A stretch of DNA of 64,000 bases from an uncultured Roseburia sp. Lineage in GTDB: Bacteria; Bacillota; Clostridia; Lachnospirales; Lachnospiraceae. The notes beneath the pieces were generated by a model that saw only the letters and a program-made list of their open reading frames with translations, was not told the DNA's origin and searched no databases. This document shows, piece after piece, positions 49,496-61,442 of this stretch. The DNA lies in the NCBI GenBank assembly GCA_900539115.1, contig UQAQ01000001.1:21368-85367 (forward strand). The letters are read 5' to 3'. The first letter of the stretch is position 1, and the number at the start of each line of letters is the position of its first letter. The position numbers and the translations under genes were made by a program.

Positions 49496-50518
49496 ATGCT
49501 GAATGCAGTTTACCGTCTGGTTGCACCCAGACGATTTGAAGTAGAATTTACGGATATTGACCTGACAGCGGGCAATGTGATCGTCAGACCGACGTATTTG
49601 TCAATCTGTAATGCCGATCAGAGATATTATCAGGGAAAACGTGCGGAAGATGTTCTGCGTCAGAAATTGCCGATGGCATTGATCCATGAGGGGATTGGAC
49701 AGGTTGTTTATGATCCGGAAGGAGAATTTCAGGCAGGCGAAAAAGTGGTAATGATCCCCAATACACCGATGAGTGAAGATGAGATCATTGCAGAAAATTA
49801 TCGAAGAGATTCCAAATTCCGCGCCAGCGGTTTTGACGGCTTTATGCAGGATGTTGTGGATATTCGCAGAGACCGGCTAGTCCGTCTCCCGGAGAATATC
49901 AATCCGCTTGTGGCAGCATTTACGGAAATTGTATCGGTCAGTGTACATGCTCTCAGCCGGTTTGATCGAATTGCGCACAAACGCCGGGAATGTGTCGGCA
50001 TCTGGGGCGATGGAAATTTGGGTTATATTACTGCCGTATTTTTTAAGGCAATGTTCCCGGATACGAAGTTATGTATTTTTGGTGTAAACCGCGATAAATT
50101 GTCAGATTTTACCTTTGCAGATGAGACGTATGTGGTTTCCCGGATTCCGGAAGATCTGCAGATCGACCATGCGATTGAATGTGTCGGCGGCGAAGGTTCT
50201 CCGAAAGCAATCAATCAGATTATTGATTATATCCGCCCGGAGGGTACGATTGCGATTTTGGGCGTGTCGGAAAACCCGGTTTCAATCAACACCCGTATGA
50301 TGTTGGAAAAGGGACTTCGTATGTTTGGCAGCAGTCGAAGCGGCAGAGCGGATTTTATGAAAACCATTGAGTTGTATCAATCCAATCCGGAGATTCCGGA
50401 ATATCTGCAAAATATCGTAGGCGGTGTATTTAAAATTCGTTCGATCGATGATATGCGCAAAGCCTTTGAAGCAGATATACACAAAGAATTTGGAAAAACC
50501 ATTATGATATGGAGTTAA
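49496..50518 (+). CDS. tarJ: Ribulose-5-phosphate reductase (zinc-type alcohol dehydrogenase family)
   Basis: It has the MDR fold with the catalytic Zn ligand region SICNADQRYYQG. It is 340 aa long and forms a tarIJ pair. Confidence 0.7.
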   Translation: MLNAVYRLVAPRRFEVEFTDIDLTAGNVIVRPTYLSICNADQRYYQGKRAEDVLRQKLPMALIHEGIGQVVYDPEGEFQAGEKVVMIPNTPMSEDEIIAENYRRDSKFRASGFDGFMQDVVDIRRDRLVRLPENINPLVAAFTEIVSVSVHALSRFDRIAHKRRECVGIWGDGNLGYITAVFFKAMFPDTKLCIFGVNRDKLSDFTFADETYVVSRIPEDLQIDHAIECVGGEGSPKAINQIIDYIRPEGTIAILGVSENPVSINTRMMLEKGLRMFGSSRSGRADFMKTIELYQSNPEIPEYLQNIVGGVFKIRSIDDMRKAFEADIHKEFGKTIMIWS

Positions 50519-50531
50519 ATGGAGGATATTT

Positions 50532-52589
50532 ATGAGTGGCTTACTTTCAAATAAAAATAAGCGGTTTTTAAAGAAGCGATTGAAATTCTGGTTGCAGTGT
50601 CTGACCCATCCGATCTTAAATGAGCATTTGATTGTCTTTGAGGCATTCAGCGGCAAACGATGCGGGGGAAATCTTCGTGCCATCTATGAAGAACTGATGG
50701 AAGATGAGAGATACCGCGATTTCCGCTTTGTATGGATTGTCAATGATATAGAGGCTCATGCGGATCTTAAGGTGCGCCGTCATACACGTGTCGTAAAAAA
50801 GGATTCCCGCTCGGCATTTATCCTTTATGCGAAAGCAAAATACTGGTTTAACAATGTAGCACTGCCAAACTATTTGATTCCGCGTCCGCATCAGGTATAT
50901 GTTGAAACGTGGCACGGAACGCCGTTAAAGCGTCTCGGAAATGATATTCAGTTTGAGGTGGATCCGAGACAGTCTTTGGCAGAAATGCACAAAAAATATT
51001 ATATCAAGGGACGCAAGATGGATTATCTCATCTCGCCATCCCGTTTTTACAGCGAAAAGATGATTTCTTCGTTCCGTCTCGATAAGAGTCATAAAGAAGA
51101 TATCATTTTGGAAACCGGTTATCCGCGAAACGATGCGCTCTTTAAATTTACCGACGAAGATGTCAAACGCATCAAGGAAGAGGTCGGAGTGCCGGAAGAC
51201 AAGAAAGTGATCCTGTACACACCGACTTGGCGCGACAACCAGTTTAAAAAGGGTGAAGGATTCCAATATAATACAGAACTTGATTTCAATAAACTGATGC
51301 AGCAGCTTGGCGACGAATATGTCCTTTTGTTCCGCGCTCACCATCAGATCGGATTCAAAGATGTGGCCAATGATGTGCCGGGTGTGATCGATGTAACGCT
51401 GGTGGATGATGTCAATGATCTGTATATTATCAGTGACCTTATGATCACGGACTATTCTTCGACGATGTTTGATTATGGCGATCTGAAGCGTCCGATGGTA
51501 TTTTATATGTATGATCTCGACGAATATCAGGGCGAGATCCGCGATTTTTATTTTGATATCAACGAATTGCCGGGTCCGATCGTAAAGACACAGGATGACC
51601 TTGTGAAGGCAATTATAGACCAGTTTGCCAACTTCACATACGACGAGAAATACAAAGCATTTACGGAGAAGTTTAATTATCTTGATGATGCCCATGCGGC
51701 ACGCCGTGTTATTGAAAAGACGATTAAGACAGATCTTGGTCCGGCATTCCGCTTTTATAAATGGGTCATCCATACAAAGAATGTCATCCGCAAGAGTTTC
51801 CGTGACGGTTATATCGCATTTTCCGGTATGCTCCGCTGCATGGGACTTTGCCGGACGGAAAACAGCAAACTTTTGTATTCCTATAAAAACAAGCATAAGG
51901 GGCAGCGTTGTTTCCTTGTTGGAAATGGTCCGAGCATGCGTCTTTCGGATCTCGAAGGACTCCAGAAAAACGGCGAGATCACGTTTGGCTGCAATCTTGT
52001 GACGAAGGCATTTGAGCAGACGACCTGGCGTCCGGATTATTATTTCCTGATCGACCGCATCTGTGCGAAATTCCAGAGCGAGGAGATCAACGAGGCAATT
52101 GGAGATATTCCATTATTTACCAATATCACGACATATAATATCTTCCGCGAGAAACCGAAAAATCCGGTTATTTTGTACAATATCGCAAAAGATAAGTACA
52201 AAGTAAAACGTTCTCCGCTGGCATATTATATCCCGTCCGGTTCGACGGTGATGTCATTGATGATTGAGATGGCGGTTTATATGGGATTTTCCGAGATTTA
52301 TCTGATCGGCTGCGACTGTACCTCGACGTTTACCGGAAATACGCATTTTATCAACGGTTATACGGATGACAAATTGAAGCAGCGTGATGCGAAGAAGATT
52401 GTGGATCGCATGCGCCGCCTTGGCATCCAGAGCGATGATTATGAGAAATATTTTCTGGATGGTTCGCTGAATGCGTACACGCTTTTAAAAGAGCATGCCA
52501 TCAAACACCATGTGAAGATTTTCAACGCCACCCGCGGAGGGGCCTTGGAAGTGTTTGACCGCGTGAATCTGGATGATTTTGTAAAATAA
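50532..52589 (+). CDS. TagF/TarL-like polyol-phosphate transferase fused to a C-terminal DUF115 / MptE-like (Maf-type) domain
   Basis: The N-terminal ~430 aa carry TagF hallmarks (YVETWHGTPLKRLG, PTWRD). The C-terminal ~250 aa contain FLVGNGPSMRLSDLEGL, which is the GNGPSL signature of the DUF115 / 6-hydroxymethylpterin diphosphokinase MptE-like fold. Confidence 0.65.
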   Translation: MSGLLSNKNKRFLKKRLKFWLQCLTHPILNEHLIVFEAFSGKRCGGNLRAIYEELMEDERYRDFRFVWIVNDIEAHADLKVRRHTRVVKKDSRSAFILYAKAKYWFNNVALPNYLIPRPHQVYVETWHGTPLKRLGNDIQFEVDPRQSLAEMHKKYYIKGRKMDYLISPSRFYSEKMISSFRLDKSHKEDIILETGYPRNDALFKFTDEDVKRIKEEVGVPEDKKVILYTPTWRDNQFKKGEGFQYNTELDFNKLMQQLGDEYVLLFRAHHQIGFKDVANDVPGVIDVTLVDDVNDLYIISDLMITDYSSTMFDYGDLKRPMVFYMYDLDEYQGEIRDFYFDINELPGPIVKTQDDLVKAIIDQFANFTYDEKYKAFTEKFNYLDDAHAARRVIEKTIKTDLGPAFRFYKWVIHTKNVIRKSFRDGYIAFSGMLRCMGLCRTENSKLLYSYKNKHKGQRCFLVGNGPSMRLSDLEGLQKNGEITFGCNLVTKAFEQTTWRPDYYFLIDRICAKFQSEEINEAIGDIPLFTNITTYNIFREKPKNPVILYNIAKDKYKVKRSPLAYYIPSGSTVMSLMIEMAVYMGFSEIYLIGCDCTSTFTGNTHFINGYTDDKLKQRDAKKIVDRMRRLGIQSDDYEKYFLDGSLNAYTLLKEHAIKHHVKIFNATRGGALEVFDRVNLDDFVK

Positions 52590-52600
52590 TAGCAGGAATG

Positions 52601-52636
52601 GGGCGCTGCGTGCAGCGCCCTGTAATGGTTTTGGAA
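52601..52636 (+). terminator. Rho-independent terminator closing the glycopolymer locus
   Basis: gggcgctgc / gcagcgccc is a perfect GC-rich 9-bp stem, followed by tgtaatggtttt. Confidence 0.6.
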
Positions 52637-52690
52637 AGCTGTGAGCTTGCGTGGCATGCGAGGTTCCGGGGCCCTGATGGCTTGAGGCGA

Positions 52691-52750
52691 GGTATTACGG
52701 GGAGTATTGCAGTGAGTGTTGCAGGGAGTATTGCGGGAAGTATTGCGGGG
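52691..52750. repeat. Five tandem copies of a GC-rich 12-nt unit (aGTATTGCgGGg)
   Basis: The five units are ggtattacgggg, agtattgcagtg, agtgttgcaggg, agtattgcggga and agtattgcgggg. They are contiguous and sit in an otherwise AT-rich non-coding region. Confidence 0.7.
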
Positions 52751-52802
52751 TCAGGGGCGAAATCATTTATTGGAGCGAAAATTGACTTGAAAAATGGAAA
52801 AT

Positions 52803-53035
52803 TCGTTTTAGGTCAAGGAAAAAAGAACTTGTTTTTGGTCTAGAAAGAGTTTTTTAAAGGTGGACCATAAAGCAACTTGTAAGAGTTTGGTCTAGCAAAG
52901 GATACTGGCTTTTCAGGTCAAATACAAGATGCAAAACGTATGACTCAAAGCAGGAAAGAGTCATGTGGGTCAAAAGAGTAGTATAAATTTGTTGGTCTAA
53001 TCACTTGAAAAATTAAATTAGGTCAAAAAGAAAGG
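52803..53035 (+). repeat. Iteron-like array: nine direct repeats of T-rich–GGTC(A/T)A–A-rich with ~26-bp periodicity
   Basis: GGTCAA or GGTCTA occurs at 52811, 52837, 52889, 52916, 52968, 52994 and 53021. Degenerate copies (GGACCA, GACTCA) lie at 52862 and 52942. The spacings are 26, 25, 27, 27, 26, 26, 26 and 27 bp, all in the same orientation. The array ends 13 nt before the Lar-like start. Confidence 0.65.
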
Positions 53036-53044
53036 AATAAGAAT

Positions 53045-53269
53045 ATGAATATCGAAGAAATGTTAGAGATCAGTGACTGTCCGCTGTGTGAGGGCGGCGC
53101 ATTGTTGGAAGAAGAATGTGGCTGTGGTTATTATGTGATGTGTCTGGAGTGCGGATGTCATTCGGTGACGATTGATTTCCACTCCGAGGATGAGCGGCTG
53201 GAGGCAGCGAAAAGAGCAGTGACACTCTGGAATACCGGCAAGGTGATTTCCAGCAGTCCGGGAGAATGA
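53045..53269 (+). CDS. Lar-family (restriction-alleviation-like) zinc-ribbon protein
   Basis: A 74-aa protein with four Cys pairs (CPLCEGG..CGCG..CLECGC) and the C-terminal A-x-x-x-WNT motif (AVTLWNTGK) typical of Lar/PF14354. Confidence 0.45.
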   Translation: MNIEEMLEISDCPLCEGGALLEEECGCGYYVMCLECGCHSVTIDFHSEDERLEAAKRAVTLWNTGKVISSSPGE

Positions 53270-53270
53270 T

Positions 53271-54059
53271 ATGGCAAGGGTAGATGGTCATATTCATATT
53301 GAGCGGGGAGATTACTCGCTAGAATGGATCCAACAATTTGTAGACAAGGCAGTAGAGACGCAGATGGATGAAATCCGCTTGCTCGAACACTGCTACATAT
53401 TTGAAGAATTTAGACCAATGTATCATTCTGTATGTGCACACAGTAAGTTTGTGGATGAGTGGTTTCAAAGAAAAGCCGGTAAGCATAAGCTGCCAGAGTA
53501 TTTTAAACTGATTGAAAAAGTAAGAAATCAAAAATATCCTGTTACGATAAAGTTTGGACTTGAAATATGTTACTTTAAAGAGCAGGAGGCATTTATTGAA
53601 AAAATCACGAAAAACAAAGGCTTTGATTTCTTGTTAGGGAGCGTTCATTTTGTGGATGATTTCGCCTTTGATCATAAGCCGGAACACTGGATTGGAATCG
53701 ATGTCGATGCGATATACCGCACCTACTTTGAAGATTCCATATTGCTGGCAAAAAGCAAATTGTTTGATGGAATTGGTCATCCGGATGCCATAAAATTGTT
53801 TGGTCACCGGCCTTCTTTTTCCCTTTCCGGTTATTATGAAAGATTAGCAAAGGAACTTTCAAATAGTAATATGTATGCAGATCAAAACAGCGGGGCAGCC
53901 AGAAGATGTCCCGGAACTTCTTCTTTGGGAATGGAGCGCGAATTACTTCGGGCAATGAAGAAAAATTATGTGAAAATTATTACTTCATCGGATGCTCATT
54001 GTCCGGAAGACGTGGGCGACAAAATTCGGGACTTGGAAAATTGTGTTGTAAATGCTTAG
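53271..54059 (+). CDS. PHP-family phosphoesterase (HisJ/HisK histidinol-phosphatase-like)
   Basis: It has the DGHIHIERG N-terminal metal-binding motif, and GSVHF and HPD motifs. It is 262 aa long. Its start lies 1 nt after the Lar-like stop. Confidence 0.6.
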   Translation: MARVDGHIHIERGDYSLEWIQQFVDKAVETQMDEIRLLEHCYIFEEFRPMYHSVCAHSKFVDEWFQRKAGKHKLPEYFKLIEKVRNQKYPVTIKFGLEICYFKEQEAFIEKITKNKGFDFLLGSVHFVDDFAFDHKPEHWIGIDVDAIYRTYFEDSILLAKSKLFDGIGHPDAIKLFGHRPSFSLSGYYERLAKELSNSNMYADQNSGAARRCPGTSSLGMERELLRAMKKNYVKIITSSDAHCPEDVGDKIRDLENCVVNA

Positions 54060-54878: not shown

Positions 54879-55027
54879 GTTCTATTTTTCGGGAACAGTA
54901 CTTCGACTCGGAAATCAGAATGTGATATTTGACTTGGGTAATATTTTGGCACATTGTCATATGGGCATATATAGTTTGATTGAATTGAAAAAAGAAGTGT
55001 AAATCGAAATTTGTGGAGGACCTTATC

Positions 55028-55642
55028 ATGAAAGTCATTTTTGTCAGGCATGGAAAAGATGACAATAAATACCGTGGCGGATGGAGTAAAATAGACTTAA
55101 TCCCAGAAGGGATTGAACAAGCAAAGCAATTGGCCAATCATATGAAAGAAAACAGTCAGGAATATCACATTCAGCGGATTATTGCAAGTGATTTACCAAG
55201 AACCATATCCACTGCTCGTTTTATATCTGCTGAATTAGGCTTACCAATCCAACAAGAGTATCGCCTGAGAGAAATGAATAATGGCGATTTAGCAGGTATG
55301 CTTAATGAGGAAGCTCTTAAGCAGTATCCTGGCCTCTTTTTTAGCTCATTAAAAATGGATGAAGCATACCCAAATGGAGAAAGCCCCAGTGATTTCTTTG
55401 CGCGAATTAGAAGCTGGTTTGATGAATTTGTTGAAAAAAGCAAAAATACGAATGATAATATTTTGATAGTAACTCACGGCGGAGTAATCAATATTATTTA
55501 CCATCTGGTAAACGGAATAGAATGGAACAACCAAAGTCATATTTATAAGGTAGCGAATTGCAGTGTCCATGTTTTAGATATGGACACAATGAAATTTGAA
55601 GTTGAAAACAAAATCGATTTCTTGCTATCCGCAGTAAACTAA
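55028..55642 (+). CDS. Histidine phosphatase superfamily protein (phosphoglycerate-mutase-like)
   Basis: The N-terminus carries the catalytic RHG motif (VIFVRHGK), and TH (VTHGGVI) lies downstream. The start was moved to the ATG at 55028, behind GGAGGA. Confidence 0.7.
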   Translation: MKVIFVRHGKDDNKYRGGWSKIDLIPEGIEQAKQLANHMKENSQEYHIQRIIASDLPRTISTARFISAELGLPIQQEYRLREMNNGDLAGMLNEEALKQYPGLFFSSLKMDEAYPNGESPSDFFARIRSWFDEFVEKSKNTNDNILIVTHGGVINIIYHLVNGIEWNNQSHIYKVANCSVHVLDMDTMKFEVENKIDFLLSAVN

Positions 55643-55693
55643 AAAATTCAAGTTTGGAGAATTGAGAAAATCGGGATTTGATGGTGAGAAGAT

Positions 55694-56782
55694 ATGTCTT
55701 TAAATATGCGAAAGCATTACATTGATAATTTAAGATGGATTATACTTTTGATACTTATACCATATCATGCAGCAATGGCATGGAATTCATGGGGCGAACC
55801 GAATTATATTTACTTTGAAAATAATCGAGTAATAAGTAGTATTATTGTATTTTTTGGTCCCTATTTTATGCCACTGTTATTTGTGTTGTCAGGTGTAAGT
55901 ACGAAATTTGCATTGCGAAAGAGAACAAATAAGGAGTATTTGATTGAGAGAGTAAAAAGGTTACTTATCCCCCTTTTGTTTGGAACAATAGTTTTAATGC
56001 CGATTATGACATATATGGCAGATAAATTTAATTGTTCTTATAATGGTGGTTTGCTAAAACATTATGCTATATTTTTTACAAAATATACGGATTTGATAGG
56101 GGCAGATGGTGGCTTTTCGTTTGGACAGTTTTGGTTTTTGTTATATCTGCTGGTTATTTCGGTTGTAGGTATTTGTGTAATTACACTGTTGAATAAGATA
56201 ATTGTTAAGTCGAAGCAAACGATTCCGTTCTGGATGGTTTTAGTATTGGGTTTACCATTACCACTGCTAAGTGAACTGCTTTCTATAGGTGGGAAAAGCT
56301 TTGTGGAATATACATATCTATTTTTGATTGGTTATTATGTATTTGCAGATGAAGAAGTAGTTGATAAAGCAGAGAAGAATAATTTATTATTGTTTGGTGT
56401 TGGACTAATAGCGACCATTTTGAATGTTTATCTTTTTGTTTGGTCAGATGTGGAATTGACATTTTTAAACATTATTACAAAATATGTTTCAGAGTGGATT
56501 ATGGTAATTGCTTTAATAGGCTTAGCAAAAAGATATTTAAATTTTGGAGGTAAAACTTCAGATTATATGAATAAAAGGTCATTTTTATTTTATATCTATC
56601 ATTTTATCTGGGTTGTTCTGTTTCAGTACATATTATATGGTTTTGTTGGAAATAAAACCGTTGTATTGTTTATTGGCTCGGTGCTAATGTCTTATTTGAT
56701 GACATCTATTTGTTGCGAGATTAGTATCAGAGTACCTGGTTTGTGTTTTCTGACAGGAACAAAATATACTGCAAATAAGTGA
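55694..56782 (+). CDS. Acyltransferase family 3 membrane protein (O-acyltransferase)
   Basis: It has ~10 TM helices. The N-terminal motif YIDNLRWIILLILIPYHAAM is typical of the AT3 family. It is 362 aa long and very AT-rich. Confidence 0.7.
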   Translation: MSLNMRKHYIDNLRWIILLILIPYHAAMAWNSWGEPNYIYFENNRVISSIIVFFGPYFMPLLFVLSGVSTKFALRKRTNKEYLIERVKRLLIPLLFGTIVLMPIMTYMADKFNCSYNGGLLKHYAIFFTKYTDLIGADGGFSFGQFWFLLYLLVISVVGICVITLLNKIIVKSKQTIPFWMVLVLGLPLPLLSELLSIGGKSFVEYTYLFLIGYYVFADEEVVDKAEKNNLLLFGVGLIATILNVYLFVWSDVELTFLNIITKYVSEWIMVIALIGLAKRYLNFGGKTSDYMNKRSFLFYIYHFIWVVLFQYILYGFVGNKTVVLFIGSVLMSYLMTSICCEISIRVPGLCFLTGTKYTANK

Positions 56783-56898
56783 TTGAACAGACCGTGAAAT
56801 TCCAGTTTGTATGACTCGCAAACAATTTAATAATCATTATACACAGCACTTTAGCCAAAGGTTAAGGTGCTATTTTTTACCACAAAAGGAGGATTTGA

Positions 56899-57237
56899 AT
56901 GTCATATAAATTAAAACTTGTCTGCACGATTACATCCGCAGGAAAAACATCCTATACCAGTAAAAAATTGCGGAAAAATGATTGGTATAAGTATGAGGTT
57001 CAGGCATATCGTATCGTGGATGGGAAAAAAGTCGTTTTTGGACGTTCTTTACAGCTTCATGCGGCGACGAAGGGCAGCAAAAAATATGCAAATCCAGTGG
57101 CTGTACGCATTGCAGGAAGCAAAAAACGCACATTGAAAGTGGGAAAAATCATAACCAAGAAGCCCGGACAAGCTACCGTTTATGTGGTTACGCAAAATGG
57201 TGTGATGGCTAAAATAAAGGTGAAGGTGAGGAAATAG
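56899..57237 (+). pseudogene. Isolated bacterial Ig-like (Big_2) domain fragment; probable gene remnant
   Basis: The 112-aa ORF ends in a Big_2-like segment (KRTLKVGKIITKKPGQATVYVVTQNGVMAKIKVKV). It has no signal peptide or partner domains, and there are ~120 nt of non-coding sequence on each side. Confidence 0.3.
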
Positions 57238-57377
57238 ATAATAATTTTTTAGAAAATATAGTGACTAGGTGCAGGTTTTCTGCACCTTTTTGTTTTTTAA
57301 ACCGACCAAATGTGATACTATTTTATCTAATAGTTGTAGTACTTAATTTCAAGGCTTTGGAAGAAAGGAATAACCCC

Positions 57378-60464: not shown

Positions 60465-60521
60465 ATGCTGATTGCAGAACAGGAAATTGTGTGATATTCT
60501 TGCTTGAAAAAGGAGAAAATC

Positions 60522-61442
60522 ATGAAGAAACAATTGGAATTAATCGAAGAGTATTTATATTATGGGAGAAAGCAGCGAAAATTAGATGAAAAAACGATCC
60601 GCGCGTATCGCATTGATTTGAAGCAGTTTTTAGAGTTTAACGGACAGGAAGAATTGGTGATGTCAAGAGAGGCAATCCGGAAATATATCCTGCATTTGCA
60701 TGATGTTTATAAGCAAAAGACAGTAAAGCGGAAGATTGCAAGTTTGAAAGCATTTTACTCGTATTTAGAGGAAGAAGAGATTATAGAAGACAGCCCAATG
60801 CGAAAGGTGCGGACGGAATTTCGTGAGGAGAAAGTTTTGCCACGTACGATTCCTTATTCTACTTTGGAAACACTGCTCAGCTATATGTATTCTTTAAAAT
60901 TACAGACAAAAAATACGGAAAGCAGAACAAAGCTGTTAAATCGCGATATTGCGGTGGTTGAAACACTTTTTGCAACGGGAATACGGATTTCGGAACTATG
61001 CAATTTACCGCAGAAAAATATTGATCTGGAGCAAGGAATATTTTGTATAAAGGGCAAGGGAAACAAGGAGCGGTATCTTCAAATAGGAACCGTTCAAGTA
61101 ATAAAGCAATTGCAGGAATATAAAAATCAATGGAAGGATGAACTGAGCCAGACAGAGTTTTTCTTCCTCAATCGTTATGGGGAGCGATATTCAGAACAAT
61201 CAGCCCGTCGTATGGTCAGACGCTATGCAGAGCACGCAATGATTGATCTTCATGTTACACCCCATATGTTTCGCCATGCATTTGCAACACTGCTTTTAGA
61301 GGAAGAAGTGGACATTCGTTTTATCCAAAAAATGTTAGGCCACGCTTCCATTACGACAACGCAGATTTATGCGGAAGTGGCGTCAAAAAAGCAGATGGAA
61401 ATATTAAGGATGAAGCATCCGAGAAATCGTATGAATATATAG
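60522..61442 (+). CDS. Tyrosine site-specific recombinase (XerC/XerD / phage-integrase family)
   Basis: The C-terminal catalytic motifs HMFRHAFATLLLEEEVDIRFIQKMLGHASITTTQIYAEV (the R..H-R-H..Y set) are present. The start was moved to the ATG at 60522, behind AGGAGA; the track ORF starts at TTG 60504. Confidence 0.85.
   Translation: MKKQLELIEEYLYYGRKQRKLDEKTIRAYRIDLKQFLEFNGQEELVMSREAIRKYILHLHDVYKQKTVKRKIASLKAFYSYLEEEEIIEDSPMRKVRTEFREEKVLPRTIPYSTLETLLSYMYSLKLQTKNTESRTKLLNRDIAVVETLFATGIRISELCNLPQKNIDLEQGIFCIKGKGNKERYLQIGTVQVIKQLQEYKNQWKDELSQTEFFFLNRYGERYSEQSARRMVRRYAEHAMIDLHVTPHMFRHAFATLLLEEEVDIRFIQKMLGHASITTTQIYAEVASKKQMEILRMKHPRNRMNI

Follow-up and report, generated by a model that had tools for sequence, protein, structure and literature searches.

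Replication iterons are multiple phased repeats of one motif within a non-coding stretch: they measure 17–22 bp, are conserved over their full length, lie about two turns (about 21–22 bp) apart, and adjoin a rep gene, an AT-rich unwinding element and DnaA boxes. Mixed orientations occur in the nine incA iterons of P1 and in the heptad arrays bound by the omega protein of inc18 plasmids. The omega arrays consist of many short sites (7–10 bp) with a small core and overlap promoters; the heptads are contiguous, with a 7-bp period, and their copy number provides both cooperativity and redundancy. Type III toxin-antitoxin arrays of the ToxI kind are made of near-identical tandem repeats of ~34–45 nt, followed by a ToxN/AbiQ-type toxin gene. 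Cooperative repressors usually sit an integral number of helical turns apart, and a spacing of 2.5 turns is unusual.

Two repressor families are also relevant for comparison. CtsR reads the heptad RGTCAAA, and its operators are direct repeats over core promoters in Firmicutes (PMC12634643). The full CtsR operator is A/GGTCAAA NAN A/GGTCAAA, in which the heptads are 3 nt apart and in a 10-bp register (PMC12634643). NagR/DasR, of the GntR/HutC type, recognizes the dre operator GTGGTCTAGACCAC, the GG of which is contacted by two winged-helix arginines; the half-sites of this palindrome, GTGG...CCAC, are 6 nt apart (PMC4333415).

Here, we analyze an array of GGTC sites in a 64-kb stretch of Lachnospiraceae DNA (the window), which an earlier note had suggested might be either the origin or control region of an integrated element or an undescribed regulatory array. 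As far as its letters can be interpreted, the locus is best read as an orphan, species-restricted, phased operator-like array.

Architecture of the array and its surroundings

The array spans positions 52797–53035 on the forward strand and comprises nine slots with a 26.2-bp period; it occupies the space from the upstream terminator to the ribosome-binding site in front of the first gene in a co-directional block (Table 1). Successive starts of its seven perfect GGTCWA hexamers are separated by 26, 52, 27, 52, 26 and 27 bp, and the best lattice through them (26.2 bp) leaves a largest deviation of 0.5 bp; an equally good fit was obtained for none of 2295 random placements of seven sites over the same span, with periods from 15 to 40 bp allowed. 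The periodic spacing described in the earlier note was thus borne out by the recount. Only 30 GGTCWA hexamers occur in the window on both strands together, and shuffling the bases of the window produced at most four per 220 bp on one strand. Tandem Repeats Finder did not report the array, because the units share just a short core. The array is real, statistically secure and anatomically unusual.

Table 1. Coordinates of the array slots and of adjacent signals and genes in the window.
Feature	Position	Strand	Sequence or remark
Terminator-like hairpin	52598..52623	+	After the Glyphos_transf gene; end of the upstream glycopolymer operon
Unit 1	52811..52816	+	ttttaGGTCAAgg
Unit 2	52837..52842	+	tttttGGTCTAga; GGCCTA in strain L005
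Slot 3, inverted	52861..52866	-	TGGACC on +; minus strand ctttatGGTCCAcc (GGTCCA); GACC exactly in phase
Unit 4	52889..52894	+	agtttGGTCTAgc; GGTCTG in six strains
Unit 5	52916..52921	+	tttcaGGTCAAat
Slot 6, inverted	52940..52945	-	ATGACC in 7/12 conspecifics; minus strand ctttgGGTCAT
Slot 6, haplotype of the window	52940..52945	-	ATGACT; minus strand AGTCAT; C>T at 52945
Unit 7	52968..52973	+	atgtgGGTCAAaa; just 5' of the -10-like hexamer
-10-like TATAAA	52982..52987	+	Best in the array, between units 7 and 8; invariant in 12/12; putative promoter element
Unit 8	52994..52999	+	ttgttGGTCTAat; at the predicted transcription start
Unit 9	53021..53026	+	aattaGGTCAAaa; AGTCAA in L007 and L010; ends 18 nt before the ATG
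Ribosome-binding site AAGGA	53032..53036	+	8 nt before the ATG
Lar_restr_allev-family zinc-ribbon gene, 74 aa	53045..53269	+	First gene of the Lar-PHP-cytidine deaminase-110aa block

The earlier count of seven perfect copies stands; the two further copies, previously regarded as degenerate and direct, instead carry the core inverted and in phase, so that the copies do not all share one orientation as had been supposed. From slot 1 to slot 9, the order is > > < > > < > > >. In slots 3 and 6, the 5' T-run is inverted together with the core and the exact phase is kept; the minus strand of slot 3 with its flank reads ctttatGGTCCA. GTC is present in nine of nine slots, the G that precedes it is kept in eight slots of the window and in all nine of the majority haplotype, and the core as a whole is intact in seven of the nine slots of the window. 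T is enriched at positions -4 to -2 of the units, and outside positions -4 to +6 unit identity is 36%, compared with 29% expected from local composition. The base change that distinguishes slot 6 in the haplotype of the window (the window and four fetched sequences) also makes a perfect 7-bp inverted repeat, ATGACTC...GAGTCAT (52940–52965); in other strains, slot 6 reads TGACCCA, the perfect complement of TGGGTCA in unit 7.

Several familiar repeat classes were considered and rejected. In the case of a decaying minisatellite, the finding of six core positions intact in seven units has a probability of about 1e-11 given the divergence of the flanks, and tandem duplication cannot yield inverted copies. 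A minisatellite or VNTR fits neither the low unit identity outside the core nor the presence of all nine slots in 12 of 12 conspecific sequences. A ToxI-like array is not matched by units that are 26 nt long, diverged and in two cases inverted, or by a downstream gene of the Lar_restr_allev family. Finally, an inverton was rejected because the sole flanking inverted repeat (52782–52793 with 52910–52921) is built of the array motif.

The sites come in two flavours, (A)GGTCAA in the odd slots and (TT)GGTCTA in the even slots, with no exception among the seven direct copies; this alternation is one of 35 possible arrangements of seven direct copies (p about 1/35). The true repeat therefore comprises two sites and spans 52.5 bp, or 5 x 10.5 bp, corresponding to 5.0 turns of B-DNA. 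Neighboring sites are 2.5 turns apart and consequently lie on opposite faces of the helix, and sites of the same flavour, 5.0 turns apart, lie on the same face. The earlier note had correctly recognized the 26-bp phase and its 2.5 turns, but had missed the 52.5-bp alternation, which is a signature of DNA-level, face-by-face recognition.

The locus upstream of the array is of the teichoic-acid glycopolymer type, and its last gene (50532–52589) encodes a 685-aa protein in which a CDP-glycerol glycerophosphotransferase domain (Glyphos_transf) is joined to an MptE-like domain at the C-terminus. Between the terminator and the array, the DNA is GC-rich and includes a 12-bp tandem repeat (52692–52750). 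Downstream, GC content drops, and the genes, all on the forward strand, encode the Lar_restr_allev-family protein, a PHP/HisJ-family phosphatase, a cytidine-deaminase-fold protein and a 110-aa protein. The last copy of the motif had been placed 13 nt before the start codon of the first of these genes, a distance that is corrected in Table 1. Annotation with Pfam and NCBIfam covered the ORFs between 48.7 and 63.6 kb, ten spot-checked upstream ORFs and the domains of the conspecific loci. A recombinase gene at 60504–61442, 7.5 kb from the array, is full-length and aligns end to end with XerC/XerD models, and the rest of the window holds ordinary chromosomal genes, e.g., those for DHFR, the CspB germination protease, a sporulation-type sigma factor and a LysR regulator. 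By consensus scan, no full sigma-70 promoter was found inside the array, and none was evident upstream of unit 1.

The position of the array directly against a ribosome-binding site raises the question of whether the motif could act in RNA, as a transcribed 5' leader in which UUUnGGUCWA motifs or core-core hairpins bind an RNA-binding protein or control translation or stability. The forward strand does fold better than its shuffles (z = -2.96), which the minus strand does not (z = -0.78), but the repeats are complementary among themselves, T-run with A-run and GGTC with GACC, and this accounts for the extra folding energy. Rfam 15 covariance models gave chance-level matches only (E > 3), with no family matched, and the lack of an evident promoter upstream of unit 1 also argues against a leader of this length. 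Moreover, an RNA would be without the motif at the two inverted copies, and exact half-integer and integer helical turns are meaningless for RNA. As the inverted copies and the helical arithmetic thus point to DNA rather than RNA, we consider an RNA-level element very unlikely.

Variation within the species and occurrence elsewhere

The array was compared across 12 conspecific sequences. In 12 of 12, the nine slots are present in the same phase and at the same total length from unit 1 to the ATG, apart from a 1-bp deletion in the A-run at unit 5 in one strain. Unlike the array, the adjoining repeats 60–200 bp upstream (12-bp and roughly 48-bp) vary in copy number: the 12-bp tandem repeat, GTATTGCRGGGA, is present in 4.9 copies in the window and in about 2 to 5 among strains, and in two strains (L007 and L010) about 48 bp of the GC-rich segment before it are duplicated. 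A ~55-bp hairpin insert (GTAACTATTCAGG...CCTGAATAGTTAC) directly follows the stop codon of the upstream gene in several strains. Although the spacer is a hot spot for repeats, the GGTCWA array keeps a constant length.

Within the species, polymorphism affects 7 of 54 core positions and 21 of 185 flank positions (p = 0.81), and the cores of units 2, 4 and 9 and of slot 6 are lost in some strains; present-day selection on individual sites is therefore weak or absent. Variable sites are unevenly distributed along the array, with 3 of 78 in the promoter-proximal third (52967–53044) versus 26 of 170 in the distal part (p = 0.0096), and this less polymorphic third holds the only good -10-like hexamer.

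These patterns bear directly on the main rival to the operator reading, namely a functionless relic: an array that was once functional or duplicated and is now drifting, or a by-product of a repeat-prone spacer. The equal polymorphism of core and flank, the several strains without one or two cores, the two other copy-number-variable repeat families in the same spacer and the confinement of the array to one species all agree with such a relic. On the other side, the units are near-random and yet retain an intact core in seven of nine slots and GTC in every one, which excludes drift from duplication at about 1e-11, and the inverted in-phase copies and the alternation of flavours require selection or a templating process. 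The invariance of length and phase across the 12 sequences and the significant conservation of the proximal third likewise weigh against drift. Taken together, we judge a relic unlikely, although no other alternative competes as strongly with the operator reading.

The Lar-PHP-deaminase-110aa block occurs in all strains; in two of them an inserted gene separates PHP from the deaminase, and in one the call for the deaminase is truncated. In some strains, an Exo_endo_phos gene sits between the PHP and deaminase genes. Gene content beyond the conserved block (54900–57300 in the window; from about 4900 in L001–L010) is strain-dependent, the variable sets including His_Phos_1 with a 154-aa gene, a 107-aa gene with MarR and C_GCAxxG_C_C, and an AAA_15 ATPase. 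This downstream stretch is low in GC, hypervariable and without recognizable mobility genes. Among human-gut assemblies, 834 indexed blocks contain the Lar protein.

When 185,579 species representatives were scanned for a three-core pattern, seven loci matched: this species with an identical arrangement, three ordinary tandem repeats, two isolated, chance-like triples and one locus from a soil Clostridia MAG (L030); a comparable array was found in this species only. The GTDB representative of the species (L026, an uncultured Lachnoclostridium sp.) contains the triple-core pattern at one locus only, and the 64-kb window likewise holds a single locus, so that an interspersed, REP-like repeat scattered around the chromosome, an objection foreseen in the earlier note, was rejected. 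Plasmid and phage databases had also been named there as a place to look for the unit, and blastn in distant mode gave no match in 50,697 phage or 72,556 plasmid records. A pattern scan of viral contigs returned only chance-level triples or unrelated 8-/13-bp repeats. The corresponding scan of metagenomes gave at least 120 matches; among the matches listed, nearly all are ordinary 13- or 26-bp minisatellites, and the GGTCWA repeats listed mostly show 75–100% unit identity, versus 36% in the array.

The locus in the soil Clostridia MAG (DATESK010000059.1, 3700–3765, minus strand) contains TGTYGGTCAAA three times at 26- and 27-bp spacing, followed by a fourth GGTCAA 13 bp further, and is intergenic, between a terminator and a small lipoprotein-like gene. 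It resembles the array in its GGTCAAA core, its 26-/27-bp spacing and its intergenic position behind a terminator and before a small gene, but differs in having three phased copies, all direct, a conserved TGTY flank and unrelated neighbor genes. This triple may be an independent instance of the same site grammar; some such matches are expected by chance.

Other periodic GGTC motifs were encountered during these searches. In three phage-like metagenomic contigs (L078, 2751–2847; L150, 320–491; L153, 756–902), GGTCTAG or GGTCAAA recurs with a strict 13-bp period, and the intervening spacers of 6–7 nt are unrelated. In L078, a terminase large-subunit gene follows about 2 kb downstream of the array, with three small ORFs between, and the L150 array lies beside an early region with a DNA methyltransferase; all three may be pac- or ori-type protein-binding arrays. 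In a Candidatus Obscuribacteraceae MAG (L025, 6340–6790), a ~26.5-bp tandem repeat right after a histidine-kinase-like gene contains the palindrome TTGGTCAACAGCGACCAA in each unit, about 15 times; this is an ordinary full-length tandem repeat that shares with the array only the core and the period.

The genes next to the array were also followed into other species. Five groups of homologues of the Lar-like gene (73–91% identity) lie in unrelated contexts with no GGTC lattice upstream, and homologues of the PHP gene (73–81% identity) likewise have unrelated surroundings and lack an array; the idea that the element accompanies either gene was therefore rejected. With no array at the Lar or PHP homologues of other species, or, by the three-core pattern, in other GTDB species representatives, there is no comparative support for a conserved regulon. 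Close homologues of the 74-aa Lar_restr_allev protein (61–91%; L032–L039, L160 and L162) are widespread in gut Clostridia, where they are encoded by single small genes, e.g., behind genes for amylase, DHOase or YkuD, rather than in prophages. Given these chromosomal, non-prophage contexts, a restriction-alleviation role is doubtful for this Lar subfamily. Avoidance of the motif as a restriction site or methylation motif was rejected as well, since neither GGTCAA nor GGTCTA is depleted outside the array under order-2 and order-4 Markov models; the apparent depletion of GGTCWA outside the array is a composition effect.

Comparison with replication origins and known regulators

Like iterons, the array consists of a single motif repeated in phase many times over non-coding DNA, and its phasing and copy number had been called typical of them. 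The array could accordingly be imagined as replication iterons, or as a partition centromere for handcuffing or segregation, belonging to a plasmid, phage or ICE that is, or once was, integrated. Consistent with this are the nine phased repeats, some of them inverted as in the P1 incA iterons and the omega heptads, the drop in GC content and the strain-variable gene content downstream, and the phage contigs elsewhere in which GGTCWA recurs at a 13-bp period with variable spacers. Of the features that characterize iterons, i.e., full-length conservation, a two-turn phase, an adjacent rep gene, DnaA boxes and an AT-rich unwinding element, none was however found at the array. Its 26.2-bp period, phased at 2.5 turns, and its conserved core of 6–10 bp differ from iterons of 17–22 bp, so that the comparison made in the earlier note does not hold. 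No DnaA box (TTATCCACA, up to 1 mismatch) is present in 49863–53450, no Rep family domain was found in the annotated region, the ten upstream ORFs or the conspecific loci, and the annotated genes within about 10 kb include neither parA/parM nor a centromere-binding protein gene.

More broadly, no rep, par, relaxase, conjugation or phage gene was found in 48.7–63.6 kb or among the ten sampled upstream ORFs. No phage or plasmid record matched, and the viral contigs gave chance-level triples. The tyrosine recombinase at the end of the downstream islet is indeed present, full-length and Xer-like, 7.5 kb away, and the Lar-PHP-deaminase genes occur in every strain of the species. With no rep or par gene, DnaA box or mobile-element gene nearby, the idea of iterons or an origin is unsupported. 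Every feature tested (unit length and conservation, phasing, rep gene, DnaA boxes and mobile replicons) is absent, and we regard an origin or centromere at this locus as highly improbable.

The GGTC core matches the targets of Firmicute winged-helix repressors, and we treat these matches as leads to the type of protein that may read the array, rather than as memberships. One could nevertheless propose that the slots are sites of CtsR, of a GntR/HutC-type repressor (NagR), of Spo0A or of SpoIIID in an unusual single-half-site arrangement. Units 5, 7 and 9 contain the exact CtsR heptad GGTCAAA, and unit 1 matches it at six of seven positions. The even units, (T)TGGTCTA(G), reproduce one half of dre, including the arginine-contacted GG; more precisely, units 2, 4 and 8 hold TGGTCTA, one dre half plus the center. 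The host is a spore-former, and the CspB and sporulation-type sigma factor genes lie in the window.

The arrangement of these matches differs from both operators. CtsR heptads are paired 10 bp apart, whereas those of the array are alone, with no second heptad 10 bp from any unit and the next site 26–27 bp away, and the even units read GGTCTAR. The palindromic partner of dre is absent in all units, the sites are isolated in a 26-bp phase, and the odd units differ from the half-site. The downstream genes are neither clp or other class III stress genes, as would be expected for CtsR, nor amino-sugar genes, as would be expected for NagR, and chance alone would be expected to give 6-bp matches to several unrelated motifs. 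Control by one of these known regulators therefore appears quite unlikely.

A candidate operator array and what it may mean

The suggestion that the locus is an undescribed regulatory or cooperative repressor array remains the best reading, both attempts to refute it, i.e., the recount of the spacing and the search for scattered copies, having left it standing. We tentatively favor a cooperative protein-binding (operator) array placed over the promoter of the Lar-PHP-deaminase operon and occupied by a predicted binder, a possibility that we rank first while holding it with less than even confidence. Each slot would be an asymmetric site of ~10 bp, TTTnGGTCWA, for one sequence-specific DNA-binding protein. 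A winged-helix protein would fit this site, with its recognition helix on GGTC and its wing in the minor groove of the adjacent T-run. Bound units would interact along and across the helix to form a single cooperative nucleoprotein complex of about 230 bp, which would cover the -10-like TATAAA, the predicted start site and the leader, and would thereby set transcription of the operon, most simply by repression.

The two ends of the array could contribute differently to such a complex. Units 7–9 would lie over the spacer, the start site and the leader, and units 1–6 would reach 180 bp upstream. The six upstream sites may act as redundant helpers that raise the occupancy of the three promoter-proximal sites, a redundancy that, as proposed here, would account for the tolerance of single-core losses alongside conservation of the proximal third. 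The half-integral spacing and the alternating flavours might reflect contacts that link alternate sites on each face, or two sets of proteins that interleave.

The closest described parallel to such a complex is offered by cooperative multi-site operator arrays of ribbon-helix-helix or winged-helix repressors, for instance the omega-protein arrays, which are alike in having many short sites in mixed orientation, a small core and an overlap with the promoter, and in which copy number yields cooperativity and redundancy, as we propose for the array. The differences are considerable: in place of contiguous heptads, the sites here are 26.25 bp apart and separated by random spacers, no such repressor gene is adjacent, and the array is chromosomal and species-specific. 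Against an operator, the sequence also offers the 2.5-turn spacing, the lack of a complete sigma-70 promoter, the equal polymorphism of core and flank, and the occurrence in one species. Because the array was found in one species and its core shows no detectable constraint within that species, confidence in it as an important or general device is limited.

A bolder version of the operator reading would see the array as the docking platform of an undescribed bacterial nucleoprotein complex, in which one protein or a pair of paralogues reads the two flavours, set on opposite faces every 2.5 turns and with programmed inverted sites, and builds a zig-zag or two-layer filament that switches the promoter. 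We know of no precedent, in classical operators or iterons, for half-integral cooperative spacing with two alternating flavours. The triple repeat in the soil MAG hints at the same site grammar in other Clostridia, in which case the grammar might recur in this class. We consider this extension unlikely.

If the array is a relic, it is a caution that strict periodicity alone does not signal a replication origin. Transcription control in the Lachnospiraceae of the gut is almost unexplored, and if the operator reading is true, the array, with nine sites of defined core and phasing, would be a clean bait with which to isolate a new DNA-binding protein. It would, moreover, provide a naturally occurring case of half-integral cooperative binding with two alternating flavours.
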